DNA of 64,000 nt, taken from positions 92,846,838 through 92,910,837 of the forward strand of contig NC_081359.1 in assembly GCF_030684315.1 (NCBI RefSeq), read 5' to 3'. This document shows positions 5,620 through 57,960 of the stretch, piece by piece (position 1 is the first letter of the stretch; every line of letters begins with the position of its first letter). This stretch comes from Stegostoma tigrinum. Taxonomy: Eukaryota. Under the pieces are notes generated by a model, which saw only the letters and a list, made by a program, of their open reading frames with translations, was not told the DNA's origin and ran no database searches. Position numbers and translations under genes: made by a program.

Positions 5620-5995
5620 TAGGACTGTTAATCCAAAGATCCAGATTATGTTCTGAGGACCTGAGTTCAAATCCCACCATGCTAACAGTGATCAGAGATA
5701 ATGGGAACTACAGAGGCTGGAGAATCTGAGATAACAAAGTGTGGAGCTGGATGAACACAGCAGGCCGAGCAGCATCTTGGGAGCACAAAAGCTGACGTTT
5801 CGGGCCTAGACCCGTCATCAGAAAATTCAGTGAGGGTGGGGTTGGCGGAAATGTGGAATTAACAGTCTAATGGTGCTAAATCCATTGTTGATTGTTTGGA
5901 AAAAAAACCATCTGGTTCACGGACATCCTTTTTTAGGGATGGAAACTGCTATCCCTACTGGGCCTGGCCCATGTGACTCCAAATCCACAGCACTG
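5620..5995 (+). mobile_element. tRNA-derived SINE interrupted by a PLE terminal fragment (about 5693-5825)
   Basis: gagttcaaatcccaccatg B-box, then the PLE end, then the SINE body resumes (catctggttcac...catgtgactcc). Confidence 0.6.
5794..5821 (-). ncRNA. Minimal hammerhead ribozyme motif in PLE terminal repeat
   Basis: Reverse complement is CTGATGA-c-GGGTCTAGGCCC-GAAAC-GTC: intact core, stem II GGG/CCC, but a weak stem I. Confidence 0.55.
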
Positions 5996-7456
5996 AAGAG
6001 TCTTTATTTCAAAACGAATAGAGTTTATTCTTTAAAAAAACAGAGGTTTTGATAAAACTAGATAAGGCATTAGTCAGACGACAGTGGGAATGCTGTGACC
6101 AGTTTTGAGTTCCTTGTCTATGGAAAGATATATACTGGCATTTAAAGGTAGTCCAGAGAATGAGGCTCAAAGTATACAATTTAACTCACAGGAGGGTGTC
6201 TTTGATTAACAAATGCACACTATGGACGTAGAATGATAGTCTAGTTTGAAATTTGATATCTGTCTTTGGGATTATAATAGAAATATAATAAACAGCTAAT
6301 TAATGGCTTTGATAATGGTTGTGCTCTTAAAAGTGCTTTTATTCGAAGCTTGTATTCAAGCTCAGTTCAGTTAATACATTCCTTTTAATGAATACACTAT
6401 TAATAAGCACTTTGTCATACTCAGCTGAGCTATAAACTCAGGAAATTTAATTTACTTTCTTCTTTATCCCTTTTGTTCTCTTTTTAATGAGCCAGCAATT
6501 TTACCAGTGCACACAGAAATCAGTGTAACTGTAATTCTGTGACAGAATTTTGCTGACCCTCAAATTAGTTCTTTTGAGAGATTACAGCCAATTCTAGGGT
6601 TTGCAAAAAAAACAGCAGTTTTTCTCCATTACTACTTAACAAAATAGAATGCGAATTATTAGAGGCCTCATTGACCAGCGTTCAGGTTTGAATCTAAATG
6701 TGATCATACTGAAAGCAATGCAAGGAGATGACAGGTCGGCACAACATTGAGGGCCGAAGGGCCTGTACTGTGCTGTAATGTTCTATGAAATTTAGGAGCA
6801 GACTATTAAGCCCCTCAGGCCTGTTCCTCTATAAACTGAGATAATTGTAGACTTGAGTGTGCTAATGCAGTTAACAAACTTGTTTGTGGTATCAGCCCCC
6901 GTGAGCTAATGCATGAATACATACAATAAATAGTTGAGGACCCAACGTAGAGCCTTGTAGGACACTAATAATGACATTCTGCCAGTTAGTGTACCCTCCT
7001 ATTATCTATATTTTCTCCTGCACATCAGACAACTTATCAACCAGGTCAATAATTTTCCCTCAATCCAATAACTCTGATTTTAACTGACAGCCCTTCATGA
7101 AAGATTATCATGTGTTTTCTGAAAGTTCAAGTAAATAACAATGACCGACTTTACCTTGTCAATTTTATTCCATTGCTCAAAAAGAAACATCATCTCAGTC
7201 AGGCATAATCTAGCCTTTACAAACTGCTGCTGGCTCTCTCCCAATTAGTTACAAATTTTCAAGATCCTGAATAGCTGTTGTAGTCAACAATTTCCTGTCC
7301 GGATTTTTTGGTGAACTTGCCCCACATCCTCTCCGTACCCTCCATCGACCTTCTTAAGTAGCAAAGCAGCAGGCGCACAATTTTTTAACTTAAAGAAACG
7401 GGCCCCACATTTTGAGAACTTTGGAAGATTGTAGTTAGGAAATCTATAATGCTGTC

Positions 7457-9990
7457 TGTAATGAGTTCTCTGATTGGATCAGATTAACAGCCCCAATCGG
7501 GGAGCCCTGGCTGATAGGTAAGAAGAGGAGTGTCCCCTTTTTGGGTGCAGTGGTAGTGTGGGGGAAATTACAGGAGTCTGAGTTTCCCCTGTCTCTGGGG
7601 ACTGACACTGAGCTAGCTGGTCAGAATCCCTGTACTGTGCACAGAGAAATAAAGGGCAGTTTGGTGACAGCATGTTAAGTGTTGGATGCCCTATTCACTC
7701 CAGGAGCTGCTTTTGAGGGAACTAGATCGGTGTCAAGGACTTTCCACATGTAAATAAAGACTGACTTGGTGATGGGATATCTAGCCTCTACTGTCACCAC
7801 AAAAGTGACTCTAGAAGAGCATGCTCCTGAAGAAATTCACTCAACTGTCGTCTTTGAGTTGGGGTAGGCATTTCTGTATGCTATTATTTGAGAAGCTTGA
7901 CTCGTGCAATCTTGTTGTTGGGCCCAATATTTCAATCTTCAAAGAATGCATTACTTTCATCTGTCCCAATGGCAGATGAAAAGCAATGAGCAATTTTCCT
8001 GTCAGTTTGTGGACCCACAGCTTTTTCAGTTATGAGGAGCCAGATACTAAAACCTCTTAAAGAGTTGACAGACTTAGTTAAGGAATATTATGATACCAAG
8101 CCTACTCTTATTCTGTGATGCTATTGGTTTTTGTGGAAAATTTGAGAAGCAAAGGAGTCTGTATTGGGATTTTTGTTGAGGTTAAGATGACTGGCAGAGG
8201 CATGTGACTTTGGTCTAACCCCTTAATGAAATGTTGAGAGACTTTGGTATGTCTAATTTTTATGATTTAATTGTACAAATGTACCAACTAGCTGAAGTCC
8301 AATTGGGCTTCAAACAGGTAAATGCAGCATATGAGTTGCAGGCTATTTGGGCTCACGACTGGAGGAAGAAATCCCACTAGACCTAAATCAAGTAAGAGAA
8401 CTCATAGGCTGGTATCCAGGAGAGTGCACACCTTGGAAAGGCCACCTACAACTGGTTTGGAACAGTTTAAGTTGCTTAGCAACACCTAAATGAGAGCCAA
8501 TCAAAATAATGAGATAAGTGTGCAGAGCTGGATGAACACAGCAGGCCAAGCAGCATCTTGGGAACAAGAAAGCTGATGTTTCAGGCCTAGACCCTCCTTC
8601 AGAAATGGGGGAGGGGAAAGGCATTCTGAAATAAATGGGGAGAGGGAGAGGTGGAGAGAAGATGGATAGAGAAGATAGGTGGAGAGGAGACAGACAGGTC
8701 AAAGAGGTGGGGGTGGAGCCAGTAAAGGTGAGTGTGGGTGGGGAGTTAGGGAGGGGATAGGTCAGTCCAGGGAGGACAGACAAGTCAAAGGGGCGGGATG
8801 AGCCTAGTAGGTAGGAGATGGGGATGGGGTGGGAGGACGGGATAGGTGGGAGTCTGCGGTTCCTACTATCTCTCAGTCAAAATAAATATCTAGTTAAGTG
8901 GCCACCTGGCCCTGATGGAGGTTCATACTGGTGTGGCCGTTTCGATGATCGCAGAACTAGTCTTTAAGAGCATTCATTCTTGACTCCCAAGACCTTAGCT
9001 AGACTGAACCTATACTGGGGAACCTCTTACAGACTAAGTACAACTTTGGTCTAGTCTGTGAGGAACAGCTGGTTCAGTTACCTTTTTTTATCGTAAAAGC
9101 CTCAGGATGAAATTAGTTCAACATTCTTCGATTTAGAAAATTGCTGCCTGAGGGAAGCACTAACTAAACACTTGGAAGATTTTCAGGAAGGTTTAGGGGA
9201 CTATCAAAGGAGCTAGGGCCACCTTGAATGTTGACCAGGAAGCAATTGCACGATACCACAAGGCCCGCCCAGTGTGGTTTGCCTTGTAGGTGAAGGTAGA
9301 GGCAGAAGTCATGAGGCTGGAAAGTGGGGACAACGTCATCAGAAGAATGAGCAGCACCGGCCAAAATGACTTATGAAGCCGGACAGGTCAGTTCGCCTTT
9401 GTGGGGATTTTAAACAAATGGTAAGCTGCTTTTTTCCACAGCTGGATAAATACCAAATCCCTCACATAGGAGATCTGTTCACCGAAAGCTGGTGGGGGTA
9501 GCTATTATTCATGAAGCTGGACATGAGGTGCGCATACCTGCAGTTATGGTTAAATAAGGATTCCCTGCAGTATGGTACAACTGTAAAGGTTTGTACTAAC
9601 ATACAAGATTGCCGTTTGGGTTATCATCAGCCAATGCAATTTTTCAGCAGATGATGGAAGATCTTTTTACGCAGTCCACCCCAGGTTGCCATTTATGTAG
9701 ATGATATGCCATTAACAGGGAAGACCAATAGAGAGACCTTGGGCATAGTCCTTAGAAGTTTCTTCCAGGCAGGCATATACCTTTTTTCCCTTTTTAAAGT
9801 ATGATCCAGGTACCCCAAGTGACCTACTTATGCTACAGATTGACAGAGACTAGGTTACACCCATTGGATGATCGTGAGGCCACTCAAAGGTATCCCTGCT
9901 CCAATGTCTGTACCAGAACTTAGGTCTGTCCTTGGGCAGGTGAGCTGTTACAGAAAGTTCGTACAAAACCTGGCCTCCACCTGCTGAGAT
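7457..9990 (+). mobile_element. Decayed Ty3/Gypsy LTR retrotransposon (5' LTR, gag, partial pol)
   Basis: LTR-like 7457-7790 is homologous to solo LTRs at 14087 and 31368. pol motifs VRLCGDFK (about 9391), TRLPFGLSSANAIFQQMME (about 9603) and VAIYVDD (about 9685). Many stops and frameshifts. Confidence 0.8.
8511..8874 (-). mobile_element. PLE family A 3' terminal fragment nested in the Gypsy element, with short inverted tail
   Basis: Homologous to 55029-55400. Flanked by tcaaaataa repeats (8501-8509, 8877-8885). The right end tctgcggttcctactatctc is the element terminus in opposite orientation. Confidence 0.75.
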
Positions 9991-11553
9991 TCTAATAGTT
10001 TGTTTTGGTTTCAGATTTCCAAGGCTGACCTTTTTTTTTAAATGAGTTGATGCAAAGGTGCCAGGATGGAAGCCAGGTTTTGTATGAATGTTCCATAACA
10101 TCTATGGAGAGAAATCGGAGTGAATGTTTTGGGTCCAGTGACCCTTTGTTGGAACTGAGACTGTCTTCAGTTCCATTGGTTGGTAGTTTTTAGGTTCGTC
10201 GTTCTCAAAGTTTACTTACTGTTCTATTAGTGTCAAAGCGTCAGTTTGTTTCACCATGAAGTTTATGGACACTCCATTGATTTTACTCGTACAATACATA
10301 CCTCAGCTGAATCAGTCCACATTACACTTTTTTTTAAAAAAAGTAAAGTTTGAAAATGTAAAACCATTTCCTTTACGGTAGCTGGTCAGAATCCTAGAGT
10401 TACTTTTTATTGACCTGTGTTTGTGGGTACACACATTAAATGGGAGACTACAGCAATTTGCAGTAACTGGCCTGGTTGTGGCCTGAGATGAATATTGTAA
10501 CTCAAACCAGATATATTAGAATACTTAAGGTACAAAGCTGTGAGTTTACAGACTTGCTTGTAATATTCAGCAGAATTTACCAATAAATACACCCATCCAC
10601 CTCTGGAAATAGCTATATTTGAAAGAGGTCAGGCAGTCTAGTAACATTGTTGTAGCTCAGTACTGAGAAGGCAGTATGTACACTGGTTATGGTAAATTTA
10701 AGTTTTTTTTTTATTGTTACAAAATACAGTGAAAAATGTTGTACAGTGTCACCACTCTCTCTGGCCCACCTCAGCGATGCTGCAGGGTCTTCTACTGCCC
10801 CAAACTTGCCTCCCAGCAGCATTCGTGAATTGGCACTGGGGCCGCCTCATCAATGCAACCAAACTCTTTTTGATGCCACCCCGAGCCTGCGCCGGACATA
10901 CTTGCTGTTGCTACGAGCTCCTGAGCTTTTCAACAAGAGGCAAGTAAAACGAGAGACAAAATGAGAAGGGGGAGGGGGGTGCGGAAATCCAAGAAAAATG
11001 AAAGGAAAGCGGAGAAAAGGAACTAGGAAAGAAAGCCAATGAGCCCCGGGCTCAGAAGCCTGACGCTACTCATCTTACCGGAAGAATACTTGTAGAAGAT
11101 GAGGCAATCCAGCAGCAGAGCATGGGTTGCTCTTTTTGGACCTGGCCCCTGTCTGATCTGAGCAGACATTGTGTTGATTCTAATTCTGCTGACCAAAATA
11201 CCTGAGCTTGGTGATGGAGTCGCCCATCAGAGGGTGGGGAGAGAGAAAAGAAATGGAAGGCAGGTGTGGACCGAGTTGTGAAGGTCAACATCTATCAAGT
11301 TTTGAGTGAAATGTTTTGGGCCTTCTTGACCTTCGTGTTTCTTATATCATTCCCCTATGAATGACAATCCAAGAGTAAGCCACCTGGTCCTCCATATCAT
11401 CTGCTTTACCAATCAATAAGATCATGGTTGATGTGATTTTTAAACCACTCTATCAGGGGAGTGCAAGAGAGAGTGTAATCTTCCATGGCCTGATTTTTGA
11501 GTTAGCAATGCCTTTTCACACTGATCCACTTGGTAAAGTTAGTAGTATTTGAG

Positions 11554-11555
<2 letters not shown>

Positions 11556-11588
<33 letters not shown>
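11556..11588. repeat. (GATT)n microsatellite
   Basis: About 8 tandem gatt units. Confidence 0.9.
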
Positions 11589-11634
11589 TTAAAAAAAGTA
11601 ACAACTGCAATGAAGTGTTCTACTGATTTAAATT

Positions 11635-11938
11635 CCCTACAGTGTGGAAACAGGCCCTTTGGCCCAACAAGTCCACACCGCCCCCCGGAGCATCCCACCC
11701 AGACCCATCCCCTATAGCCCACACACCCCTGAACACTACGGGCAATTTAGCATGGTCGATCCACTTAGCCCGCACACGTTTGCACTGTGTGGGAGGAAAC
11801 CGGAGCACCCGGAGGAAACCCACACAGACATGGGGAGCTTGTGCAAACTCAGCACAGACAGCTACCCAAAGCTGGAATCGAACCCGGATCCCTGGTGCTG
11901 TGAGGCTGCAGTGCTAACCGCTGAGCCACCATGCTGCC
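11635..11938 (-). mobile_element. HE1-like V-SINE
   Basis: Reverse complement of the 41072 and 44934 copies: tRNA-like head, V-domain, CR1-like tail. Confidence 0.85.
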
Positions 11939-11944
11939 TGGTCA

Positions 11945-13003: not shown

Positions 13004-13243
13004 ATAACAAGGTGTCGAGCTGGATGAACACAGCAGGCCAAGCAGCAGAGGAGCAGGAAGGCTGACGTTTTGGATCTGGACACTTCAGAACTTTCCTGCT
13101 CCTCTGCTGCTGCTGCTGCTTAAGTGTCCAGACCCGAAACATCAGCCTTCCTGCTCCTCTGCTGCTTGGCCTGCTGTGTTCATCCAGCTTGACACCTTTG
13201 TTATCTCAGATTCTGCAGCATCGGCAATTCCCACTAGCTTCTT
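13004..13243. mobile_element. Fold-back (palindromic) PLE family A insert
   Basis: Arms about 13004-13085 and 13122-13204 are inverted. Candidate TSD atcaaact(c/a)tta at 12993-13004 and 13244-13255. Confidence 0.8.
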
Positions 13244-14554: not shown

Positions 14555-14684
14555 ATCACTGCTATGGATGATGGAAATCTGGAACCGGCACAGAGAATGC
14601 TGGAGAAATTGAGCTGGTCTAACAGTATTTGTGGAAAGAGAAACGGCGTTAACCTTGAGTCTGGTGTGACTGTTGTTCAGAACT
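14555..14684 (-). mobile_element. PLE family C terminal fragment (decayed hammerhead end)
   Basis: Homologous to the arms at 57721-57960 (gctggagaaa..cag..ggtct..cag.at.tgtgga.agagaaa...gttaac...cagaact). Similar fragments at about 10100-10156 and 32598-32740. Confidence 0.55.
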
Positions 14685-17815: not shown

Positions 17816-18282
17816 TGAGTCCAAGGTATTTGCATTGCTTGCCTGGCAGCCCGTGTGAGGCATGAAGAGTTTAGAGTGTGTGCCCTTTTGAGGAGTGGTG
17901 GGAGAAAAATGTCTTCCCAAAAGGAATTTCTGCCCAATGGCAGTTTGCCCACTGGCATGCCAAAGCTAAAATAGCATTAGGTCAAAATAGGGCATTTAGA
18001 TGGCCATGTGTAAATCACTTTGATGTCTCAATAGGCCCGACAGCAAGCAGATCCTGCCATTCCCAGCTCCCACCCTGAGTACCTTGGGAAACTGGTCTGG
18101 GATGGGCAGCAAGCCAGAAGGCAGACCATGAGCTGGATTTTACAAGCCCTCTGCCAGCAGGGAGCCACACGGTTCAGGCCGAAGTCACCGATCTTCTCTC
18201 TTTCAAGAAAGAAAACAATATTGACGGAGACGGAGAGGAAAAACTGGAAATCTGAAATTGAAAAGAATTTTAAAAATTGTTT

Positions 18283-18655
18283 CAGAGATAGTAGGAATGG
18301 CAGATGCTAGAGAATCTGAGATAACAAAGTGTAGAGCTGGATGAACACAGCAGGCCAAGCAGCATCAGAGGAGGAGGAAGGCTGTCGTTTCAGGCCCAGA
18401 CCCTCCTTCAGAAATGGGGGAGGGGAAGGTGGAATCCGAAATAAATAGGGAGGGAAGGGGGGAGGCAGATAAAAGATGAATAGAGAAGATAGCTGGAGAG
18501 GAGACAGACCACTCGGAGGTGGGGATGGAGCCGGTAAAGGTGAGTGTCGGTAGGGAGGAGATAGGTCAGTCCAGGGAGGACAGACAAGTCAAGGGGGCAG
18601 GATGAAGTTGGTAGGTAGGAGTTGGGGCGTGGCCTGAGGTGGGAGGAAGGACAGG
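18283..18655 (-). mobile_element. PLE family A 3' terminal fragment
   Basis: Homologous to 55029-55400 and 8511-8850, including a decayed hammerhead at about 18385-18412. Confidence 0.75.
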
Positions 18656-20065: not shown

Positions 20066-20295
20066 CTGGTTAGCACTGCCTCACAGCATCGGGGGCCGGG
20101 TTCTGATTCCAGCCTCAGTACGTGTGGAGTTTGCACATTTTCCCTAGGTCTGCGTGGGTTTCCTCCAGGTGCTCTAGTTTCCTTCCATGGTCCAATGATA
20201 TGTAGACTAGATGGCTTGGCCGTGCTGCGGATAGGTTAGGTGGGTGTGTCTAGGTGGTCTTTGGAGGATTAATGCAGACTCGATGGGCCGAATGT
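20066..20295 (+). mobile_element. Decayed V-SINE
   Basis: tggttagcactgcctcacagc...gtggagtttgcacattttccc...gatgggccgaatg. Confidence 0.7.
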
Positions 20296-32400: not shown

Positions 32401-33264
32401 CTGAAAGACATGAGTTATGAGCAAGTCTTTCTTTTGGTAAATTATGGAGAGAATGGGGCTTTTAATTTTTTCCCCTGTTGAGGAAAAAGATGAGAGCTTG
32501 GCTACGAAGGAGCAAAATTGGGGAGTGTCTTTCCCACAAACAGCTGGAGAAGTTGTCGTAGATTTAACTTTTTAACAAATATTAAGAAAGCTTTCCAATA
32601 AAAACAAAACACTGCAGAGCTGGCAATCTGAAGCAAAAGAAGAATGTGCTGAAGAAACTCAGCAGGTCTATCAGCACCTATGGAGAGAGAAAGAGTTAAC
32701 ATTTTGAGCCCAATAACTTCCCCAATGATCTTTGGAACTCGATTCTCTGGATAAAAATGCTCGGCATAGTTTATACACTCAGTCTAGCTTTCTGGACTCA
32801 GAGCGCTAACCTTCTACAGCGTTTCCTACTTTACTACAAGGAAATTGAGCGGAAGGTGACCACTGCCCAGTGTACTTCTCTGCAGACTTTAAGATCTTTG
32901 GGTTTTGCTGGTAATGAAAAGTCCTGGCTATTCCGGAACAATTCCATTAACTACAAAGGAGCAGAACTTCATCCTGGCTCCCCAGTTTCTGTTTTTTTAA
33001 CTTGCCAGTTTCCTCCTTCATCTGTTTCAAATATTTTGGATGACCTATGAGCTGGGCCAGCAGGCACCGATAATGACAACAGGCAGGTGATGCAAATTAA
33101 AATATGTTTGGACTTTTCCCTCGGGTGATCATATTAGAGAGATTCCCTCCATTATGTAGAAAGCAGCTACTAATAACCAATCAAAAACTCTATGTAAATA
33201 AGAACAGGGAAATTTTCCACATGGGAACTCTACAGTCTTCTGGACTCTGTACTGAGCTCAACAA

Positions 33265-33715
33265 GTTTAGGCCTTGAACCACCTCTTCCCACGTCCTTAG
33301 CCCAATCCTCACACACCAGGTCTTGTTATCACAAGGTCTGCCACTACACACCACTCACCTTTAGCAACTAATAGCCCCCATTAGAAGCTATTCATTCTGC
33401 AGGCTAATTGTTATTCAGTTCTTTTGTCTGTCCCACTGTTCTTCTCTCTGTTTGGGCTCTATCTCCACCCTTTTAGTTACTCCTTACTTTCTCCCTCCCC
33501 ACCCTATCTTCTACATAAAAACCAACTGTTTCCCAGCCACCATCCATTCTGAGGAAGAGCTACTGGACCTGAAACAACTCTCCCAATACCTCAAATATAT
33601 GTAAAAATATCTTACACTGGTTAAAAAATGCCTTTGGTTTCTCTGAACTTTTCCAGCATTTTCTGTTCTTGTTTCTGATTTCCAGCACCCCCAGTTCTTT
33701 CATATTTTTGTTTTT
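33265..33715 (+). mobile_element. PLE family C 3' UTR/terminal fragment
   Basis: Homologous to 63380-63660; contains a decayed hammerhead ttctgaggaagagctactggacctgaaac (about 33547-33575). Confidence 0.6.
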
Positions 33716-33794: not shown

Positions 33795-34340
33795 CCTGCT
33801 CCACTTGACACCATCCAGGACAAAGCAGCCTGCTTGATTGGCACAACATCCACAAGCATTCACTCCCTCCACCACCGATGCTCAGTATCAGCAGCGTGTA
33901 CTATCTACAAGATGCACTGCAGAAATTCACCAAAGATCCTCAAACAGCACCTTCCAAACCCATGATAACAAGGTGTAGAGCTGGATGGACACAGCAGGCT
34001 GAGCAGGAAAGCTGAAGATATGTGCCTAGACCTTCCAAACCCACAACCACTTCCATCTAGAAGGACGAGGGCAGCAGACATGTGGGAACACCACCACCTC
34101 AAGTTCCCCTCCAAGTCACTCACTGTCCTGACTTGGAAATATATCGCAGTACCTCCACTGTCACTGGGTCAAAATCCTGGAATTCCCTCCCTAATAGCAC
34201 TGTGGGTCAACCCACAGCAGGAGGAATGCAATGGTTCAAGAAGGCAGCTCACCAAAACCACCTCATGGGCAGCTAGGGATGGGCAAGAAATGCTGGCGAG
34301 CCAGTGACACCCATGTCCCACAAAAATTAATTTTTAAAAA
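33795..34340 (+). mobile_element. Non-LTR 3' fragment (27770 family) carrying a nested 67-bp PLE family A insert (33963-34029)
   Basis: LDTIQDKAACLIG. The nested insert is flanked by exact 14-bp accttccaaaccca repeats at 33949-33962 and 34030-34043. Confidence 0.75.
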
Positions 34341-41380: not shown

Positions 41381-42472
41381 GAATTCCCTTTTCTCATCAA
41401 AGTGCAAGTAATACATTTCGCATTTCTACTTACCCCTTCAAATGGAATTCATCATCTTTTTGATGAAAATTTTCCCTGTTTCCGTTCGGTTTCATTCAAC
41501 CGCATCATTGGTTATGCAAAAGGATAGTTGATGGTTACTTAATTAGCACATACTGAAATTTAGATACTTGGGCAATTGGTAATTTGATTTAATTTTTCTA
41601 ATGTGGTTGAAGTTTATATTTAGATAAATGAATTTAATTTTCGCAGAATAAGACTGCTTATAAAATATGGAATTCTGCCACAATACTAACAAAGTAATTG
41701 CAATGAATGTGGAGGAGCTGAGAATGCAAAGTCTCTGGCTCTCTTTCTGAGAATAGTTCATATATATTGTGAAAGAGCTGTTAATACCGGATACAGCAGT
41801 GGTTCTGTGACCTGCTTTTGTCTTGCACTTCCCTCCCCCTTCCCCAGAAACCACCTTGGTGCTGTGTTGGGTGGAAAACCTGCTCTTTGTAACGTGCCGT
41901 CTTTCGGTCTCCCCGAGTTGCAAAGCTTCCTCCTGAGAATGGTTAAAACATCTGGAATGTACCCTGTGATACATCAGGGCAGTGCTTTGGAGGGTTTGGT
42001 CTCCGGAATCATCACATCGCTTTTGGACTTTGTCAGAGACTGAAAAGATTGCCGCGGGAATAATCAAGAACAAGCAGCATCCTCTTTATCTTGATGTTGG
42101 TGTATTCATCATTTTTGGATATTGCGTTTTTGTCCACCCTGATATGGCCTGTGTGGGTTTTGTGTGTTTCTTACAGCATTTTGATTTCTACTGCATAAAA
42201 TAGCATAATGTCAGAGTTTAAAGCACCTAGCCTTTAAACGTGTTCAAAATACTAACGGTAAAGGGATTTAACAGTGAATTTTGCTCAGCTATGAATGTTT
42301 AGTGGCCGACAGCATTGTCAAATATTCTAATGTTGAACTCCCATGATACAACACAGCTTCTGCTGACCATTAACTATGTTGTAAATGGAACAAATTATCT
42401 CAACACAATGTTGTTGACTTTTTGTGTAGCTACAGCATATGGTACAGTAGTCTTGTTTGTTTCCTCTTGTAG

Positions 42473-44049: not shown

Positions 44050-44900
44050 AATCACACATGTAACACGATGCAGAGCTGGATGAACACAGCAGGCCGGGCA
44101 CCATCAGTGGAGCAGGAATGCTGACGTTTCGGGTCAGGACCCTTCTTCGGATCCTGATCCGAAACGTCAACTTTTCTGCTCCTCTGATGCTGCCTGGCCT
44201 GCTGTGTTCATCCAGCTCGGCATTGTGTTATACCACCTTTATAGTCCAACAGGTTTATTTGAAAATACAAGATTTCAAAACCTCACAGATAGTAAGAACT
44301 GCTGATGCTGGAGTCGGAGATAATACAGTGTGGAACCTCAGTCCTTCTTCAGGTGTTAGTGAGAGAGATCGTATCAGGCACAGAATTTATAACTAAAAAA
44401 TCAAAGGTTCACACCATTGAGGATGTACTAAACAAACCCAAGATGCTGTTAAATCTTTAATCAGTTAGAAGGTTTTAATTGATTAATTTGTATATGTAAA
44501 TCCCTGAATTTCTTTCGAGTCATGGTCCTGAGAGAACTAAAGGTTTCATCAGTGTAAAGAAGGTCTCACACCTAACATACATTGTCTGACTTAAAATGTT
44601 ACCTCCTCTTTACACTGATGAAACCTTTGATTCTCTCAGGACAGTGACTCGAAAGGAATTCGGGAATTTACATATACATATTAATTAATTAGATTAGATC
44701 ATCTAACTGATTAAAGATTTAACAGCATCTTAGCTTTGTTTCGTACATCCTCATCAATAGTATGAACCTTTTGATCTTTCAGTTATAAATTCTGTGTCCG
44801 ATACTTCCTCTCTCACTAACACCTGAAGGAGGCCTGAGGCTCTGAAAGCTTGTGTTTTCAAATAAACCTGTTGGACTATAACCTGGTGTCATGTAATTTC
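44050..44900. mobile_element. Fold-back PLE family B insert with two nested family A fragments
   Basis: Arms about 44230-44563 and 44601-44885 are inverted. Terminus caaataaacctgttggactataacctggtg. Nested family A hairpin at 44061-44230 and fragment at 44286-44333. Confidence 0.8.
44818..44856 (+). ncRNA. Minimal hammerhead motif (family B), one core substitution
   Basis: aacac-CTGAAGG-aggcctgaggctct-GAAAGCTT-gtgtt with a 5-bp stem I (aacac/gtgtt). The opposite arm keeps CTGAAGA. Confidence 0.5.
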
Positions 44901-44933: not shown

Positions 44934-45250
44934 GGGCGGCACGGTGGCTCAGTGGTTAGCACTGCAGCCTCACCGGTCCAGGGACCCGGTTCGATTCCAG
45001 CCTCCGGCAACTGTCTGTGTGGAGTTTGCTCATTCTCCCCGTGTCTGCGTGGGTTTCCTCCAAGTGCTCCGGTTTCCTCCCACAGTCCAAAGATGTGCAG
45101 GCTAGGTGGATTGGCCATGCTAAATTGCCCATAGTGTTCAGGGGTGTGTGGGTTATAGGTGGATGGGTCTGGGTGGGATGCTCCCAAGAGGTGGTGTGGA
45201 CTTGTTGGGCCGAAGGGCCTGTTTCCACACTGTAGAGAATCTTATCTAAT
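44934..45250 (+). mobile_element. HE1-like V-SINE, full length
   Basis: gggcggcacggtggctcagtggttagc, ggttcgattcc B-box, V-domain, tail atctaatct. Confidence 0.9.
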
Positions 45251-46946: not shown

Positions 46947-48229
46947 AAGGAAAAGTGCTGAGATGGATCAGTTAAAAGACTGACCTTTGTCCCCATGCAT
47001 TGTGATATTTTGGGCCCTCTAGCCCTCACACCCTACCTCTACCAACTCCCCATGCAGCCTCAATACCAATTTATACCCTTGTGGTCCCTTGACCTCATGC
47101 CAGTCTATTGCCAAATTAGGGCCTTTCCATGCCCATTCACTGTGTACTTTGTGAAGAACTGATCAGCTACACAGTAATGATTGCATGTGCAGAACTGCTC
47201 ACAAATGCTATTTACAAATCTTCTTTTGAAAAAACTAATGTTCTTAGAAACCCTACTGGCGTGTCAATGAGACGGTCAATTACAGTATCAATAGCAGTGG
47301 TTTCAAGCATGTCACAACTCTTAATCTTGTACAAATAAACATTAAACATTTGAGACCTTGATAAAATATATCACAGGAATCAGACATCAACCAAGCAAAG
47401 ACAACAATTCTCTCCAGCAGTCAAAACAGAACACCTTTTGAGATAATACTTTTTATGACTCTGGGCTCTCAGGAAAGTCTCATTTTGTACTTTTTCGAGT
47501 AGCTCCACACATGCCATCATTATGTTAAGGCCTATTGTGTCTGTATGTAATTTAACAGTAAAATAAAGTGATCACAGTCTTGTCAGACCATAGGGCTGCT
47601 GATTCATTAGAGAAAAGTAGTGAGTTTAACCTGAGAGCCGTCATGCCTCTGGGAGGGGAGAGGTAGTGAAGGCAGGTGATCTGCCTGAAATAAAGCATAG
47701 CAGCAGGATATAACAAAACTGTACCAAAACCTCTTTCACCATCACTCTGAAGGCCATGAGCAGCAAGTCATGGAGGGGTTGACAAAACCTGACAAAAATT
47801 GTCAGGGATAATGGGAACTGCAGATGCTGGAGATTCCAAGATAATAAAATGTGAGGCTGGATGAACACAGCAGGCCAAGCAGCATCTCAGGAGCACAAGG
47901 AAAAGTGCTGAGATGGATCAGTTAAAAGACTGACCTTTGCCCCATGCATTGTGATATTTTGGGCCCTCTAGCCCTCACACCCTACCTCTACCAACTCCCC
48001 ATGCAGCCTCAATACCAATTTATACCCTTGTGGTCCCTTGACCTCATGCCAGTCTATTGCCAAATTAGGGCCTTTCCATGCCCATTCACTGTGTACTTTG
48101 TGAAGAACTGATCAGCTACACAGTAATGATTGCATGTGCAGAACTGCTCACAAATGCTATTTACAAATCTTCTTTTGAAAAAACTAATGTTCTTAGAAAC
48201 CCTACTGGCGTGTCAATGAGACGGTCAAT
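46947..48229 (+). repeat. Near-perfect direct duplication, 46947-47280 / 47897-48229
   Basis: Line-by-line comparison shows identity except one missing T (tttgtcccc vs tttgcccc). Confidence 0.95.
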
Positions 48230-48296
48230 GTGCTCCTGAGATGCTGCTTGGCCTGCTGTGTTCATCCAGCCTCACATTTTAAAAATTGTCAGGGAT
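47794..48296. mobile_element. Fold-back PLE family A insert whose centre is a copy of 46947-47280
   Basis: 16-bp TSD aaaaattgtcagggat (47794-47809, 48281-48296), perfect 53-bp inverted arms, 333-bp internal duplicate. Confidence 0.85.
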
Positions 48297-49377: not shown

Positions 49378-51120
49378 GTACAAAGCTCTCAATGTCTGAT
49401 TATTCAAATAATTTTAAATGCAATAACAAGACGACTAAGCAATGGCTATGTGATCCAGCACTCCCAGTGGGAAATAATGCTTTCAGGGAGTGCATCCTAG
49501 AAGACCAGGATGTGTGCATTACTCCTAATTGGGAGGATCTGTTCCTGAAGTCATTTTTTCTATTACATTGTGTAATCACAAGAGATTGAGTGGCTTATCA
49601 ATGAAACAGTGCCACTACTGGGAATCAAGGTGGGGGTCATTTTCAAGGTAGTGTGAAATGGGAAAATTCTGATCAGCCGCAATTTTACAACCCGACTTCC
49701 ATCTCTGAAAATAAGGAGAGGCATATAATGGACAGCTGATCCATTGTCACTCATTTTGCTGTCAAAACTATTCCAGTGCTTTCACTGAGAAAGTAAGTGT
49801 GTTTGCCTTTAAAATGATGCAAAGATTTGTCTTGGACAGTTAACCGACACAGAGAGAAAATGGTACAACCTGGGGACGGTGTCACGTGAAGCCTTACACC
49901 TCCCCACTGTAAATTCCAAATTTAAAGCAGACCAAAGGCAAATTACAAACTGTCCATTTTCAAAAAGAAATGACAAATTTGAATCGAAACCTTTAATGAG
50001 AACAGAAGGTCTCGACTCGCATCATTAAGTTGTCTTTTCACTTGTCAGGTATTGGCAGCTGCTTTGCATTTCTGGCATCATTTTCTTTCAGTAAGAATAT
50101 GATTAACATGTTGAATGAACAATATAAAGAGGAAGAGCTACTTAATTACATTATGCGTTGCTAAATAATTTCTTGCTACAACATAGTAGAACTCATCAGT
50201 TGGCTCCAGTCTGCATCTCTCCAGGAGGTTGCATGTGTCCTAGTCCATTTTTTTAAAAGTTGAATTTAATTGAATTTTCAATAAACATATTTGTGCCTTT
50301 TAATGCATCTTACATTATTTAATTCCCAGTTTTTTATTTGTTCCCCAGTTTCTGTTAAGTACAGACAGATGCTCCTAGCTACTAGCTTTTGTTACAATGT
50401 ACCTCCATTGTCACTCAAACTAGGTACTGGGCCTTTGCCAGAACAGGGGAGATCCTGTGTTAGAGTCAGCACCAGAGGCATCCGTTCCTGTGGGAGGTTA
50501 TTTCATTTTTTTATGCCTCTCACAACCAGTTTTGAGCAACAAAATAAATTTTTATACTGAAGGGTCCAATAAGTACTATCAGAATTCCAGCCCCCTCCCC
50601 CCAGGGCATTGTGGGTCTACCCAGCAGTGGACTGCATCAGTTCACAAGATGGCAGCTTAGCATTACCTCTAGGGACACACCATAAATGCTGGCTCAGTCA
50701 GCCCGCACCCATCCTGTGAGTGAATTAAAATGAAACTATTCCGGGATGAAAAGCACTTCACCTAAATAAATGGGAGTGCAGACTGGGCATGTGCATACCA
50801 TGTCCTCATGCCCTAAACAGTGGCTTTACATGGGCCAAAACCAGGAACTGGAATTATACCACGGCCAGTTTCCTCTTGGGTTGCTACAAGGAGAGGAGTG
50901 CCAAATTATGGAAGTACATTCTTTATTGATTGATTAATTTGGATCCCCAAGAGGCTGGAATGTATAAAGGCACATGTGTGGTACAAATGAGGAGCCTTGG
51001 TATCTATGGCAAGAAAGGGTACTGTTGTGGTGAAGTGGCAGTGTCCCTATCTCTGTACCGGGCAGCCCGTATTCAAGTTCTACCTGCTCCAGAGGTATGC
51101 CATAACGGGACTAAACAGGT

Positions 51121-51348
51121 CGATTAAAATAATTGTATCAGAGATAATGGGAACTGCAGATGCTGGAGAATCCAAGATAATAAAGTGTGAAGCTGGATGA
51201 ACACAGCAGGCCAAGCAGCATCTCAGGAGCACAAAAGCTGACGTTTCGGGTCTGATGAAGGGCCTAGGCCCGAAACGTCAGCTTTTGTGCTTCTGAGATG
51301 CTGCTGGGCCTGCTGTGTTCATCCAGCCCCACACGATTAAAATAATTG
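51121..51348. mobile_element. Fold-back PLE family A insert at the end of a short SINE
   Basis: 15-bp TSD cgattaaaataattg (51121-51135, 51334-51348); about 66-bp inverted arms around a hammerhead. Confidence 0.85.
51252..51279 (+). ncRNA. Minimal hammerhead ribozyme motif
   Basis: CTGATGA-a-GGGCCTAGGCCC-GAAAC-GTC. Confidence 0.6.
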
Positions 51349-51789
51349 CATAGCAGGAAATCAAGGGTGTACTTAATCACTAGATATTCTGGGCTTGATT
51401 TGACACAAGATGGGGAGGCTCATTAAATCAAGTGGACAGCACGTCTGCTGCCCTTCTGCCCATCCTTGCCCTGACCATAACTGGATCTTAGCAGCAGTAG
51501 TGTCGGGTGGTCTGCCCACTAGTAGTCCTTTAAGAGAGTATTTATTGACCATTTGCTTTTCCCTGTGCAGTCTACTGGCAGCCATTGGAGGATCTTTCGT
51601 GTACAGGCCTACTGAGCTCATTGGAGAGCTCCACGGTTTTACCCCACTGCAGAAAGTCCTCCTACCACCTTTCGCCACTCCCCTCCCCTGTCTCCGTGGC
51701 CTCTGAACCGTGAGTTCCCTTAAAGGGGTCTGTCAGCTTGGTGCCTGGCGAGACTCCCAAACATAACTTAATGAGCTGGACGCATTAAG

Positions 51790-51920
51790 GACTGCACATG
51801 CTGGAAGCTAGAGTCAAGTAATATGGGACTGGGAAGCACAGCAGGTCAGACAGCATCCAAGGAGCAGGGAAGTCAATGTTTTGAGCCAAAACCCTTCATC
51901 AGGACTTTCCAGCTCCACAT
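51790..51920 (-). mobile_element. PLE terminal fragment (family A variant) with decayed hammerhead at 51871-51906
   Basis: Reverse complement agtc-CTGATGA-agggttttggctc-AAAAC-ATT-gact: 4-bp stem I, GAAA mutated to AAAA. Confidence 0.55.
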
Positions 51921-52603
51921 ACCGTAGTGAGCCAGGCTGCATGTCTGAAGAACTGGGCAAGTGCCAAACTCTGATTGGCTAGGGTTCTATTAATAGCTTT
52001 TTTAGTTGGGATGGGGAGTTCAGTTCTTCATGTAACTCATCTCTATGTTTTCAGAATAAGTAACATAAAATGAGGTTTCAGAAGCTGCAAACAAAATCCA
52101 AGTCACTTATCAGTTTGCTTTTCATGTTAGAATGTAAAGTTACTGTATGCATTTTAGGTGGAATACATACCAGAATATAATTATTTTAATCAGTATTTGT
52201 GTGAAGTGCATTTAATATCCGAAGTGCAGTCATAGTAAAGCCTTGCTTCCTTGTCACTTTCACCATTTCTCATTGATGGAAACGCTATTGTAAGACCTCA
52301 CCCAAAGTATGCTCCAAGGAGTACTTCAGATTAACATCAGAGGGGCCTAAATTGATTGTTCCAACCTCCCCGTCAGCTCTGTGTTCTTAATCCAGCAAGG
52401 CATTTTGCTGCAAAATGGAGCATGGCCTTTGTATTGAACAAAGGGAAATACTGGAATGAATATTCCTGGCCCATTGGTGACAGTGTGACATGCTGGCAAT
52501 CTGTTTCAGTTAAGTGAATCCAATTGGCGGAGGTAACAAGATAATAAAATGTGAGGCTGGATGAACATAGCAGGCCAAGCAGCATCTCAGGAGCACAAAA
52601 GCT

Positions 52604-52631
52604 GACGTTTCGGGCCTAGACCCTTCATCAG
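52604..52631 (-). ncRNA. Minimal hammerhead ribozyme motif (left arm)
   Basis: Reverse complement is CTGATGA-a-GGGTCTAGGCCC-GAAAC-GTC. Confidence 0.6.
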
Positions 52632-52907
52632 AGAGGGGGATGGGGAGAAGGAACTGGAATAAATAGGGAGAGAGGGGGAGGCGGACCGAAGATGGAGAGT
52701 CAATGGGAGAGAGATTCCCCGAGGTTGGTCCGGAGGGAGGAGGGTATCTCTGATACTATTTTAACCTCACTGCGAAGCCCACCTGAAGAAGTTACCCTCC
52801 TCCCTCCGGACCAACCTCAGGGAATCTCTCTCCCATTGACTCTCCATCTTCGGTCCGCCTCCCCCTCTCTCCCTATTTATTCCAGTTCCTTCTCCCCATC
52901 CCCCTCT

Positions 52908-52935
52908 CTGATGAAGGGTCTAGGCCCGAAACGTC
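52908..52935 (+). ncRNA. Minimal hammerhead ribozyme motif (right arm)
   Basis: CTGATGA-a-GGGTCTAGGCCC-GAAAC-GTC; only about 2 bp of local stem I. Confidence 0.6.
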
Positions 52936-54078
52936 AGCTTTTGTGCTCCTGAGATGCTGCTTGGCCTGCTGTGTTCATCCAGCCTCACATTTTATTATCT
53001 TGGAATTCTCCAGCATCTGCAGTTCCCATTATCTCTGATACTATTTTAACGAGGTAACAATGTGGGTTTTAAGATCAATCCTTTGTACAGCATATTCTAG
53101 AGTCAGCCAAAGGTAAGGGGTATCATAGGAATACCTGTCCCTAGATGATGCTGATCATAATGTGATTAACTTCAGCTAGAGGGAAAGAAAAGTGTTTTAA
53201 ACTTAAATATGAGTCATTAGATGGTATGAAGACAGAAATAGCCAAACTGAACTGGGAAATTAGGTTAACCGATAAGTTGGTCAAGATCCAGTGGCAAACA
53301 TTTAATGAGATATTTCATTTAGCAAATATAGATTTCAATGAGAGAGATTTTTGGAAAAAAAATGCACTGTTCATGGCAGGGCAAAGAAGGTAAGGAGAAT
53401 TTCAAGTTGGAAGAAAAAGTGTTCTAGCCAACTCCAGAACCACCTCGGATCTTACACTACAAAGGTCATGGATCTTATAAATAGAGTTGAAAATGAAAAG
53501 AAAAGTTGTTTAAATATGAGATTACAAAAGACCAGTGATATTGAACTGTATGTATTTTTAAAAGGTGATATCTAACCCAGCCAGAGACTTATCCAACCCT
53601 AGCTTGAAGGAATTCAGTCAATCCTTGTCATTGTATGAGCTGACAGACTGTCCCACAGTTTCACTATTTTCTGGGAGCAGAAGAACATGTAATGTCTAAC
53701 CTAGTTCTGATATGCCCTGGCTTGAACTTGTGATTCCTTGTCATTCTAATCTATTTTGTTGAAACAAGATCTCGCACTATTCAATCTAATTGCTTCTTCA
53801 TCTTGTATAGTTCAGTCAAATTACCTGTAGGTCTCTGCTTCTGTAAAGTGTGGAACCTCAGCACTTTGAGCCTATCTTGGTAAACCACCATAACCACATT
53901 ATGTTGTACGTTTTTGCTATTTTCAGAAATTTACTTTCTAAGCAATTTCTTTTTGTACGTTCTCTCAAAGCTATGTCCGATTGAAAAAACGAGCAATTTT
54001 TTCAGTTTTTTATTCTGTCATTTTGTCCATTTTCATTTCCTATCTTTGACTGAACCTTTTCCTAATTCCATCCCACAG

Positions 54079-54438: not shown

Positions 54439-54551
54439 TCAGTAACAGAGATGAAGGGCCCGGGCCCGAAACGTCAGCTTTTGTGCTCCTGAGATGCTGC
54501 TTGGCCTGCTGTGTTCATCCAGCCCCACACTTTGTTATCAGTAACAGAGAT
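54439..54551 (+). mobile_element. 85-bp PLE family A micro-insert starting inside the hammerhead
   Basis: 14-bp TSD tcagtaacagagat (54439-54452, 54538-54551) around gaagggcccgggcccgaaacgtcagc...cacactttgtta. Confidence 0.8.
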
Positions 54552-54604
54552 TTTGTGAGGTTAGTTTGTAAATAACACGAAGTTGTCAGAGAGTAGAAGG
54601 TTGT

Positions 54605-54950: not shown

Positions 54951-55027
54951 TCTCCACTTCACTGTAGAGGTTTGCCCTGCATGTACATAATGGCACTGAA
55001 AGGATATGAAAAGTAAGGATGTGTCGC

Positions 55028-56702
55028 GATAACAAGATGTCGAGCTAGATGAACACAGCAGGCCAAGCAGCATCAGAGGAGCAGGAAGCTGACGTTTCGG
55101 GCCTAGACGCTGCTTCAGAAATGGGGGAGGGGAAGGGGGTTCTGAAATAAATGGGGAGGGGGGGAGGTGGATAGTTGGTGGATAAAGGAGAAGATAGGTG
55201 GAGAGGAGATAGACAGGTCAAGGAGGCGGGGTTGGAGCCAGTAAAGTTGAGTGTAGGTGGGGAATTAGGGAGGGGATAGGTCAGTCCAAGGAGGATGGAC
55301 AGGTCAAGGAGGTGGGATTGGGCTAGTAGGTAGGAGATAGGGGTGGGACTTTAGGTGGGAGAACAAGTTAGGGAGGCGGGTACGAGCTGGGCTGGTTTTG
55401 GCACGTGGTTGGGGGAGGGGGATTTTGAAGTTTGTGAAGTCCACATTGATACCATTAGGCTGCAGGGTTCCCAAGCAAAATATGAGATGCTGTTTCTGCA
55501 AACTTTGGGTGGCATCGTTGTGGCACTGCAGGAGGCTCAGGATAGACATGTCGTCCAAGGAGGGTGAGTTGAAATGGTTTCCAACTGGAAGGTGCAGTTG
55601 TCTGTTCCAAACCGAGCGCAGGTGCTCCACAAAGTGATCCCCAAGCTACTGCTTGGTTTCCCCAATGTAGAAGAGGCCACATTGGGAACAGCAGATACAG
55701 TTTACCACATTAGCAGATGTGGATCTGTTCGATGTGGAAGGTCTTTTTAGGGCCGGGGATGGGGGTGAGGGGGGAGGTATAGGGGCGGGTGTAGTACTTG
55801 CTCCGGTTGCAGGGGAAAGTGTCGGGTGTGGTGGGGGTGGAGTGGACAAGGGAGTCATGGAGAGAGTGGTCCCTCTGGAAAGCAGATAAGGATGGGGAGG
55901 GAAAGATGTCTTTGGTAGTGGGGTCAGATTGCAGATGGCGGAAGTGTCGGAGGATGATGCGTTGGATCCGGAAGTTGGTGGGGTGTACATGAAGATGAGA
56001 GGGATTCTGTTTTGGGTTTTATTGTGGGGAGCGGGTGTGAGGGATGAGTTGCTGGAAATGCGGGAGACACGGTCGAGGGCGTTTTTGACCATGTGGAGGG
56101 GAAGTTGCAGTCCTCGGAAAAACGAGGACATCTGGGTTGTCCGGGAGCGGAATGCCTCATCTTGGGAGCAGATGTGGCAGAGGCGAAGGAATTGGAAATA
56201 GGGGATGGAATTTTTGCAGGAAGGCAGGTGAGAGGAAGTGTAATCCAGGTAGCTGTGGGAGTTGGTGGGCTTGAAATGGATATCACTTTCTAGGTGGTTG
56301 CCAGAGATGGAAACAGAGAGGTCCAGGAAGGAGAGTGAGGTATCAGAGATAGTCCAGGTGAACTTAAGGTTGGGTTGGAAGGTGTTGGTGAAGTGGTTGA
56401 ACTGTTCAAGCTCCTCATGGAAGCGTGAGGCGGCGCCGATACAGTCATCAATGTAACGGAGGAAGAGGTGGGGTTTGGGGCCAGTGTAGGTACAGAAGAC
56501 GGATTGTTCCAGGTATCCTCCAAAGAGGCAGGTATAGCTTGGGCCCAAACGGGTACCCATGGCCACCCCCTTTGTCTATAGGACATTAGAGGAATTGAAG
56601 GAGAAGTTGTTAAGGGTGAGGAGGAGTTCAGCTAAGTGGATGAGGGGGTCAGTGGAGGGAGACTGTTTGGGCCTGCGGGACAGGAAGAAGTGGAGGGCCT
56701 TT
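55028..56702 (-). mobile_element. 5'-truncated Penelope-like element (RT + GIY-YIG endonuclease, frameshifted) with family A terminus
   Basis: GVAMGTRLGPSY, FLRYIDDCIG, LSFLDL, FKPTNSHSYLDYTSSH, CSQCGLFYIGETK and EHLRSV..PVGNHFNS. Candidate TSD aggatg(t/g)gtcg at 55016-55026 and 56703-56713. Confidence 0.92.
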
Positions 56703-57275
56703 AGGATGGGTCGATATGTGTTTCCTTTTTAATCACAATCTTGTCTTCTCCTAGGTGTATCTTACTTTTACTTTTTTAGTTTATTTTGTACATGGATTGT
56801 CGACAGTGCTGGCTCGGCTAGCTTTTATTGTCCACTCAAGTTGCCCTTGAGAAGGTGATGGTGGATCGTGTGGTGTTAGGATGCCCTACAGGTTCCCACA
56901 GGAGGGAGTTCTGGGTTTTTGGCTCAGAAACAGTGAGGAAATGTTAATATGGCTCCCTGTCAGGGTGGTGTGTGGCTTGGAGGGGAGCTTGCGGTTGGTG
57001 ATGTTCTGTTCATGCTTAGCTTTAAGTTCTAATATTTTCCCTGCCACTGAGAATAAACTAAGTGTCCTGTGTAAATGTTTAACAGCTCTGTAATACACTG
57101 TAAAGTGCTGCAGTTTATAGACCTGCTCCTCTGGGAAGGAAAGTCTAGGCCTCCCTAGGACTGGAAGTAACCATTTCTTTATGAGATACTTCCTATTCTA
57201 CATCTACCAGGATGTCAACAGGTCGCACTGAGGCGCATGGTTCAGACATAAAAATCACACTGCTCTCTATTGTGT

Positions 57276-57377
57276 AGGGATAGTAGGAACTGCAGATGCT
57301 GGAGAATCTGAGATAACAAGGTGTAGAGCTGGATGAACACAGCAGGCCAAGCAGCATCAGAGGAGCAGGAGGAGGGT
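57276..57377 (-). mobile_element. PLE family A terminal fragment
   Basis: gggatagtaggaactgcagatgctggagaatctgagataacaagg...; degenerate 16-bp flanking repeats at 57260-57275 and 57378-57393. Confidence 0.7.
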
Positions 57378-57720
57378 CTGCTTTCTGTTGTATGTTCTGC
57401 AGAATCAATTCCTAATAGATTGGGGTAGATGGCTGACATCAATCCTCCTACCCTTCTGAAGAGATAAACAATTAATGGTTTAGATGGTCCCTAAGTGAGG
57501 CACTGTTACAAAAAGTCAAGAGGTCAGTGGAAACTTAAAAGGAAACTGATCAAATCAAATCAAAATATCATTCCCAGGGCTAATGTTCCTTTTCACTCTT
57601 TTAAATAAAACCTTAAACAAGTTAGACCATCTCTGATGGGACATTGTAACAAATCAAACAATTAATGGGAACTTACCGAATAAATAAGTTAAATTATTGT
57701 TACCAAATCTCCTTTCTAAT

Positions 57721-57960
57721 CAAAAGCAGGAATTACTGGAAAATCTCAACAGGTCTGGCAGCATTTGTGGAGAGAAAACACAGTTAAAGCTTCAGGTCCA
57801 GCCACTCTTCTTTGAATTGAGTGTTCTGAAGAAGGGACCACTGGACCTGAAACGCTAACTGTGGTTTCTCTCCACAAATGCTGCCAGACCTGCTGAGATT
57901 TTTCAGAAAAGTTTGTTTTTGTTTCAGGTTTCCAGCATCGACAGTTCTTTGTTCTTTTTT
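57721..57960. mobile_element. Fold-back PLE family C insert with decayed hammerhead (57823-57859)
   Basis: caggtctggcagcatttgtggagagaaaacacagtta is inverted versus taactgtggtttctctccacaaatgctgccagacctg; gtt-CTGAAGA-...-GAAAC-GCT-aac. Confidence 0.75.

Follow-up and report, generated by a model that had tools for sequence, protein, structure and literature searches.

How does a piece of a retroelement come to stand in a genome as a palindrome, and does the ribozyme that it carries set the point at which the two halves meet? This question is raised by a 64,000-nt stretch of the Stegostoma tigrinum genome (called here the window), in which BLAST searches with natural element copies located 14 loci of family A type, six family C pieces and one family B locus (about 21 in all), and in which about 14-15 of these 21, judged by eye, retain a hammerhead ribozyme core at least in part. 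The original prediction, made from the window alone, had described more than 15 short inserts of at least three families, most of them with a hammerhead motif, and at least seven inverted-repeat structures; this inventory was confirmed, and all seven inverted repeats were found, with arm complementarity of 81-100%. By their sequence the inserts are pseudo-long terminal repeat (pseudo-LTR) pieces of Penelope-like elements (PLEs). We propose that the palindromes result from twin priming, in which both nicked strands of the target would be primed from two internal sites of the element RNA, the two cDNAs would run off at a capped or ribozyme-cut RNA end and would then be joined head to head. We give this reading a probability of about 0.7.

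Palindromes pair a short arm with a tailed arm

The ends of family A inserts were read in the coordinates of a natural copy (L010), in which the hammerhead core occupies positions 133-139, stem II 140-152, the predicted cut lies between 160 and 161, two putative start sites of reverse transcription end at 224 (site 1) and 257 (site 2), and the ATG is at 299. Genome-wide counts are exact pattern matches across the 3.2-Gb genome. Because reversed-pattern controls for family A returned 0-1 matches, the palindromes and end matches reported here exceed chance; for the 34-mer at the 3' end of family A, 0 control matches compare with 81,811 exact matches genome-wide.

In 94 of 94 pairs of arms flanked by a target site duplication (TSD), one arm stops at site 1 and the other continues about 35 nt further out, a segment called here the tail. 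These pairs were collected from sampled genomic loci and from the window; many loci of this set, and of the set of 106 tight pairs considered below, were picked by junction pattern, a choice that favours neither end class. The same asymmetry is seen in 38 of 38 palindromes of an unselected sample, which consists of all 93 exact matches to the family A 34-mer recovered in the first 2.9 Mb of contig C1. These matches yielded 38 distinct palindromes (76 arms) with a TSD of at least 8 bp and a centre gap of at most 150 nt, the remainder being single inserts, edge-cut loci or loci without a clear TSD. When no TSD was required, 98 of 106 tight pairs combined a short and a tailed arm, six were scored short/short and two long/long. 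Tail-to-tail pairs were absent among 124 adjacent pairs. The TSD measures 14-16 bp in 58 of the 94 flanked pairs, and single inserts end at either site 1 or site 2.

Head-to-head palindromes are present in families A, B and C, as had been predicted. Among 15 family B pairs none is long/long, and nine of nine intact family C pairs are short/tailed by eye. The automatic end-caller, which is noisy on family C, scored six of 15 pairs short/long and four long/long, the rest being broken; inspection by eye showed that three of these four are short/long and that one has a broken arm.

The lengths and contents of the arms argue against fold-back

The original prediction had attributed the palindromes to self-primed second-strand synthesis driven by ribozyme-defined RNA ends or by stem II. 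In this explanation a single cDNA bends back at the ribozyme or stem II and serves as its own template, so that one arm is copied from the other; with an antisense RNA in place of the cDNA (Arkhipova et al. 2013), this is a published hypothesis for head-to-head PLE palindromes (PMC3846280; this and the other papers cited are referred to for the accessible part of their text). A fold-back copy cannot gain a tail that is absent from its template, so that in every pair the tailed arm has to be the one extending furthest 5'; the antisense self-priming model of PMC3846280 makes the same prediction. Among the 38 unselected palindromes, however, the tail-less arm reaches furthest 5' in 13 and the tailed arm in 10, with 15 ties (sign test p=0.68). 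The two arms of locus L031 differ in content, one consisting of 1.6 tandem units and the other of open reading frame (ORF). Zero-loop junctions and foreign fillers also occur: the centre of the window palindrome at 47794 is a 330-nt copy of DNA located 950 bp upstream, a filler that shows joining of apparent repair type at this centre. Finally, no end among the 76 unselected arms falls at 140-159, that is, within stem II or the rest of the 3' half of the core.

Some observations do favour fold-back. In 15 of the 38 pairs the inner ends lie within 5 nt of each other, one palindrome (L198:2498-2676) has equal ends and inverted flanks, and the arms share subfamily alleles, with 40 of 443 comparisons discordant against 36% in shuffles (29% in the lowest of 1000). 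Such sharing fits a common template, but it also fits gene conversion. As the main route, fold-back is already contradicted by the arm lengths and by L031, and we regard it as very unlikely. As a separate observation, the two arms at L171 (-483/-485) and at L075 (-372/-376) have their stop points far upstream and 2-4 nt apart, as if both cDNAs had run off one broken RNA end.

Inner ends pile up just before the hammerhead core

Tight palindromes were counted genome-wide by turn anchor, with patterns that are equal in width but whose anchors differ in conservation, so that the counts are unnormalised. They number 7,061 at 122-137, against five further upstream (83-98), 210 at 146-161 and 1,703 at 161-176; the 210 omit joins with overlapping anchors, and the 595 exact 161/161 joins were counted separately. 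The predicted clustering of turn points at the ribozyme is therefore borne out, the main turn point lying 4 nt upstream of the CUGAnGA core and about 32 nt before the cut site. The inner ends of the 76 unselected arms fall at 120-139 in 25 cases, at 160-163 in seven, at 164-200 in 12 and further upstream in 32.

Family A copies starting at 129 gave 11,203 pattern matches, about 12 in 100 of those listed being point variants. The base before this start is G in 71 of 100 listed matches with G or T at -2, and an extra G is present in 28 of 38 listed matches with T at -2, against a background of 0.33 (p=2e-7; both counts by eye). Position 129 fits the TCT initiator YC+1TYTYY (PMC5580651). In family C, 680 tight palindromes turn at the core edge, which is also the start of 81 of 100 copies listed; the sequence in long copies is TCAGTT, the start fits the initiator TCA+1GTY (PMC5580651), and G precedes the start A in 16 of 26 listed matches (p=1e-4). 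For family B, an arm that ends no more than about 8 nt from the start of the core was seen by eye at 17 of 30 unselected loci; its 36 tight palindromes were counted with an anchor limited to a subfamily, so that the number cannot be set beside that of family A. In L1, an extra G is the mark of full-length, capped insertions (PMC11702581). From these features we infer that the pile-up 4-7 nt before the core represents a capped transcription start and that the extra G is a copy of the cap.

Splicing was considered as a source of the 129 end, since the D. virilis intron ends at helix I (PMC4209133), and was discarded: position 129 is preceded in the genome by CCCC instead of AG. No recurrent exon upstream of 129 was found among the matches listed.

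A second class of ends lies at the predicted cleavage site

Of a minimal type I hammerhead, CUGAnGA, stem II, GAAA, a palindromic remnant of stem III and UH are present. Stem I, for which 4-5 bp would be expected, has 3-5 bp in families B and C by inspection and 2 bp in family A. The hammerhead assignment of the original prediction stands. Family A starts at 160, 161 and 163 gave 710, 4,121 and 3,188 raw matches, and about 530, 3,900 and 510 after subtraction of point variants, whose share was estimated by eye from 100 listed matches. The 595 exact 161/161 joins pass through the self-complementary AGCT. About 40 of 100 listed 161 starts, equivalent to about 1,650 genome-wide, are not AGCT joins. 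Starts at the cut site show no excess of the extra G (2 of 11), as expected of an uncapped end. Ribozyme-defined RNA ends, as originally proposed, would therefore account for a minority class in family A, and not for the main turn point, which lies upstream of the core. On this footprint, in vivo cleavage by the family A hammerhead appears somewhat more probable than its absence.

Twin priming could also be true with inner ends that reflect stalling of the polymerase or artefacts of repair and not the ends of an RNA. In this version the reverse transcriptase stalls at the C-rich tract 125-129 and adds C, and the spike at 161 derives from the AGCT palindrome or from a CUGA/UCAG helix. Position 129 is indeed the first base of the C run, half of the 161 starts among the listed matches are AGCT joins, the CUGA/UCAG helix is predicted by folding, and family C gives little cut-site signal. 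However, the ends of families B and C cluster at initiator-like motifs 4-7 nt ahead of the core, where no C run is present; the extra G accompanies core-edge starts and is not enriched at 161; stalling at the base of the helix should give starts at 163, where few are found; and the 161 starts that are not AGCT joins are left over. We consider this version unlikely.

Three further observations concern the hammerheads. Genome-wide, substitutions of the cleavage base in family C are about 8 times commoner than at the preceding base (about 198 versus 25), a pattern unseen in family A that may be subfamily variation. Short head-to-tail repeats in contig C1 (for example at L194) consist of a tail end followed directly by a unit beginning at the cut site or beside it, an arrangement expected from cut RNA that has been circularised or primed anew. 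At least two more hammerhead families, with a longer stem II and cores followed by TGAAAAC or TGCGGAAC, were seen at L045:1033, L045 (minus strand, 8976), L052, L073, L078, L032, L046 and L160.

Family A is the terminal repeat of an autonomous element

The insertion at locus L031 is flanked by a TSD and comprises an inverted array of pseudo-LTRs, an ORF broken by frameshifts and a 3' pseudo-LTR. In the frames of this ORF a reverse transcriptase (RT) is followed, via a cysteine-rich linker, by a GIY-YIG motif (YIGET). The ORF is 49% identical to P0004, and its relatives, P0004 among them, have RVT_1 matches and weak GIY-YIG matches; Pfam matched no family on the three L031 frames, and a PDB sequence search gave no significant match. 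Because L031, its relatives and the window copy at 55028 carry an RT and GIY-YIG ORF, family A is assigned to the terminal repeat of an autonomous PLE, in line with the PLE origin first proposed. A linker of the form CxxxxCxxC precedes the GIY-YIG motif, and the Neptune type is assigned from this linker (PMC3846280). Family A also has the anatomy of endonuclease-positive PLEs, with pseudo-LTRs in direct or inverted orientation, a tail and a TSD. Families B and C are known here by terminal anatomy alone, C resembling A in sequence. At 62837-63376 the window contains part of a diverged PLE ORF, which is 66% identical to L031 and has a cysteine-rich linker as well as a GIY-YIG-like motif.

The claim that a non-coding, retrozyme-like form dominates was not supported for family A. 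A 300/301-bp tandem unit that fuses the ORF start to the 3' untranslated region (UTR) is retrozyme-like, makes up the palindrome at 52529 and moved recently, its copies being 98-100% identical. Its junction gave 51 exact matches genome-wide, against 80,458 family A copies that read upstream through the core, and 14 of the 38 unselected palindromes extend into the ORF; tandem non-coding units, the main form of non-LTR retrozymes, are thus represented in family A by this rare unit only. In one subfamily of family C, leader-only stubs do predominate, with 81 of 100 copies among the matches listed.

These results bear on a further explanation, in which the stubs are a self-propagating non-autonomous family, either SINE-like (short interspersed nuclear element) or a retrozyme, whose stub or palindrome copies would be transcribed and copied again, so that recurrent junctions were inherited from a few masters. 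The recent mobility of the tandem unit, the family C stubs and the recurrence of some junctions agree with it, as does the derivation of animal retrozymes from PLE pseudo-LTRs (bioRxiv 10.64898/2026.07.22.740005). Yet the 51 unit junctions face about 80,000 copies, junction sequences are highly varied, and the copying of whole palindromes predicts short/short pairs in about half of the cases, where such pairs are rare. This explanation is highly improbable.

A proposed model of twin priming

In the proposed mechanism, transcription would start 4-7 nt before the core. The element protein would make a staggered double cut in the target, about 14-16 bp apart, and would use site 1 to prime one target strand and site 2 to prime the other. 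It would probably act as a dimer, with both arms mostly templated by one RNA. Each cDNA would run to the cap, to the ribozyme-cut 5' end or to a random stop, and the cDNA ends would be joined via microhomology, cap-derived bases or templated filler. Single inserts would be those in which one arm failed. Priming in the 5' pseudo-LTR would give leader stubs of 95-135 nt, and priming in the 3' pseudo-LTR long arms with ORF. The leader stubs can be likened to retroviral strong-stop DNA.

The chemistry for twin priming is supplied by a lizard PLE protein, which in vitro cleaves and extends both strands, starts reverse transcription at two internal sites bounding the tail, and is predicted to form a dimer (PMC11167929). 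The genomic ends together with this activity form the basis on which twin priming is inferred. A stronger form, which we hold tentatively and at slightly less than even odds, is that two-ended priming by an asymmetric RT-endonuclease dimer (site 1/site 2) is obligatory, and that the inserts preserve, at base resolution, a genomic fossil of a capped start and of in vivo cleavage 32 nt later. If this were true, the ribozyme would be a decapping and aborting switch on the element's own leader and not the cutter of retrozyme monomers.

Several points weigh against twin priming or its parts. Eight of the 106 tight pairs were scored short/short or long/long, at least two of them being scoring artefacts, and both arms of the window palindrome at 44061 stop at site 1, with no visible TSD, an exception to the one-tail rule. 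Discordance between arms at diagnostic sites (9%) exceeds the background of 2.3%, which suggests that some pairs use two templates, and at L149 only one arm stops at the cut site, the other reaching far upstream; not all pairs can therefore come from one RNA end. Equal outer ends with inverted flanking DNA, found in one of 106 pairs (L198:2498-2676), look like the signature of true fold-back or of inverted duplication. An A often precedes the extra G and is left unexplained by a cap alone. Microhomology favours joins with an AGCT overlap, and these make up about 54 of 100 starts listed at 161. Family C has a weak cut-site signal of about 46 junctions against 10, many of them ambiguous, which amounts to less than 1% of its core-edge starts. 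Stem I of family A has only 2 bp, as does that of the D. virilis PLE (PMC4209133). Single-strand folding gave no significant z-scores and no monomer hammerhead fold; in two-copy folding, which is silent on protein-assisted folding, an extended duplex reached -38 kcal/mol against -10.5 for a partial constrained hammerhead dimer without stem I. In the lizard PLE cleavage is dispensable in vitro, and the accessible text reports no RNA-seq reads at the cut site (PMC11167929). Lastly, the RNA start and the cut are read here from genomic insert ends.

Inserts and other features of the window

Four of the seven window palindromes turn at the core 5' edge or stem II (13004, 44061, 51131 and 57718), that at 47794 turns 5-6 nt beyond the cleavage site, around its filler, and the remaining two (44239 and 52529) turn far from the ribozyme. 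A motif CTGATGA...GAAA at 44615, beside the turn of family B, has no plausible stems and was taken as a chance occurrence. The coordinates are collected in Table 1.

Table 1. Inserts and related features of the window (a point in the strand column denotes a palindrome)
Feature	Position	Strand	Remarks
Family A single stub	5691..5824	-	begins just upstream of the hammerhead core and ends with the tail (site 2)
Older family A (A2) copy	8525..8852	-	5'-truncated; 3' UTR and core
Family C fragment	9979..10021	+	without core
Family C fragment	10099..10150	-	core degraded
A2 head-to-head palindrome	13004..13239	.	left arm short, right arm tailed; turn at core 5' edge, element-derived filler
Family C fragment	14562..14639	-	
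A2 copy	18273..18650	-	5'-truncated; 3' UTR, core and tail
Family C fragment	32597..32720	-	partial core and tail
Family C tail fragment	33643..33709	+	
Short A2 stub	33960..34006	-	
A2 palindrome	44061..44231	.	turn at core/stem II; apparently inside outer end of family B left arm
Family B palindrome	44239..44890	.	turn 44560/44607, more than 200 nt upstream of its core (44823)
Family A tail stub, 50 nt	44283..44332	-	in stem II of family B left arm; 7-bp TSD
Local donor of 47794 filler	46949..47279	+	99.7% identical, same strand, 950 bp upstream
Family A palindrome	47794..48281	.	left arm tailed, right arm short; 16-bp direct TSD; both inner ends 5-6 nt past cleavage site; templated filler 47899-48228 (330 nt)
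Family A palindrome	51131..51333	.	left arm tailed, right arm short from core edge; 14-bp direct TSD
Diverged A-related stub	51791..51910	-	starts at core edge
Young family A palindrome of rare 300-bp tandem unit	52529..53050	.	left arm short, right arm tailed; 10-bp direct TSD; turn far from ribozyme
Putative RNA start and hammerhead	52904..52935	+	start at C 52904 (TCT-type initiator); core CTGATGA 52908-52914, then stem II, then GAAACGTC; predicted cut between 52935 and 52936
Tail between putative RT start sites	53000..53033	+	site 1 (end 52999), site 2 (end 53033)
Family A single stub	54450..54539	+	core edge to site 1; 13-bp TSD
A2 PLE	55028..56705	-	5'-truncated; RT-endonuclease ORF of about 1.36 kb, 3' UTR and core
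A2 stub	57276..57370	-	tail present, no core
Family C palindrome	57718..57960	.	left arm short, right arm tailed; 16-bp direct TSD with one mismatch; turn at core 5' edge

The palindromes could in principle be artefacts of assembly or of long-read fold-back. In public contigs of one sample, the centre of the palindrome at 51131 is spanned by no contig piece among the matches listed (51000-51500); both flank-arm junctions of this insert are covered, however, and TSDs, asymmetric outer ends and arm divergence of 1-19% speak against an artefact, whose probability we regard as negligible.

Between 44061 and 44332 two family A inserts are nested in one family B arm, one of them within stem II of the family B hammerhead. 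Nesting of one PLE in another is likewise seen at L115, L156, L217, L227 and L248, and may reflect a target preference.

Rfam found no hammerhead family in the window, its hits being sub-threshold microRNA-like hairpins. The thousands of short palindromes in this genome may yield hairpin RNA and false microRNA annotations. Elsewhere in the window, two 1.2-kb pieces of RT ORF, 90% identical, inverted and 1.3 kb apart, lie at 23303-27081 and are presumably CR1-like. A 300-bp dispersed repeat occurs at 11632-11938, 41073-41383, 44934-45242, 63681-63961 and 20066-20226, its full copies being 83-90% identical; ARAGORN found no tRNA for this repeat, which we take to be probably a SINE.

Comparison with known systems

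In L1 twin priming both target strands prime and an inverted junction with a TSD results, the second primer annealing at a random internal site so that the arms do not overlap. Here, by contrast, the putative starts are fixed and 35 nt apart, so that the arms overlap and form a palindrome. The type and anatomy of the element are already published, and the mechanism was found in no paper searched: the literature searched gave no paper on twin priming or genomic cleavage footprints for PLEs, although subscription papers and supplements may hold it. The formation of inverted, tailed PLE insertions has been called undefined (PMC8557442), and evidence for in vivo cleavage by minimal PLE hammerheads is described as lacking in the accessible text of PMC4209133 and PMC11167929.

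Pen2a_Av of Adineta (PMC3846280; general scheme in PMC8557442) shares with the elements described here the head-to-head inverted pseudo-LTR, the TSD, palindromic junctions, a one-sided tail of 30-40 nt and an initiator-like motif in the pseudo-LTR. In the accessible parts of these papers the tail is optional and inversion proceeds via antisense self-priming or endonuclease resolution, whereas here the one-tail rule is near-strict, arm lengths have no polarity, inner ends are base-precise and copies number in the thousands. The TSD is 14-16 bp here and 8-10 in the systems of PMC3846280.

Poseidon PAc of Anolis carolinensis (PMC11167929) has two internal RT start sites bounding the tail and a pseudo-LTR hammerhead, both strands being cut and extended in vitro by a predicted dimer. 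The accessible text neither ties the two sites to inverted insertions nor reports in vivo cut-site ends. Family A differs from Poseidon PAc in its cysteine-rich linker (Neptune type) and in an ORF start about 140 nt past the cut site.

With the minimal hammerheads of metazoan PLEs (PMC4209133) the inserts share CUGAnGA, stem II, GAAA, a palindromic ACGU or AGCU and the lack of stem III. That paper, in its accessible part, describes opposite-strand hammerhead pairs 100-700 bp apart in Schistosoma and reports an absence of in vivo evidence, where family A provides a genomic cut-site spike; stem I of family A is only 2 bp. The 300/301-bp tandem unit resembles non-LTR retrozymes (bioRxiv 10.64898/2026.07.22.740005) in having one hammerhead per unit and a PLE pseudo-LTR origin; it differs in that only about 51 junctions exist genome-wide and most inserts are not tandem.

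With tens of thousands of young copies in this genome, insert ends discriminate between insertion models, and the exact bases of the predicted RNA start (52904) and of the predicted cut (after 52935) can be named. The insert ends contradict the published self-priming idea and tie the two-site, two-strand activity seen in vitro to real insertions.

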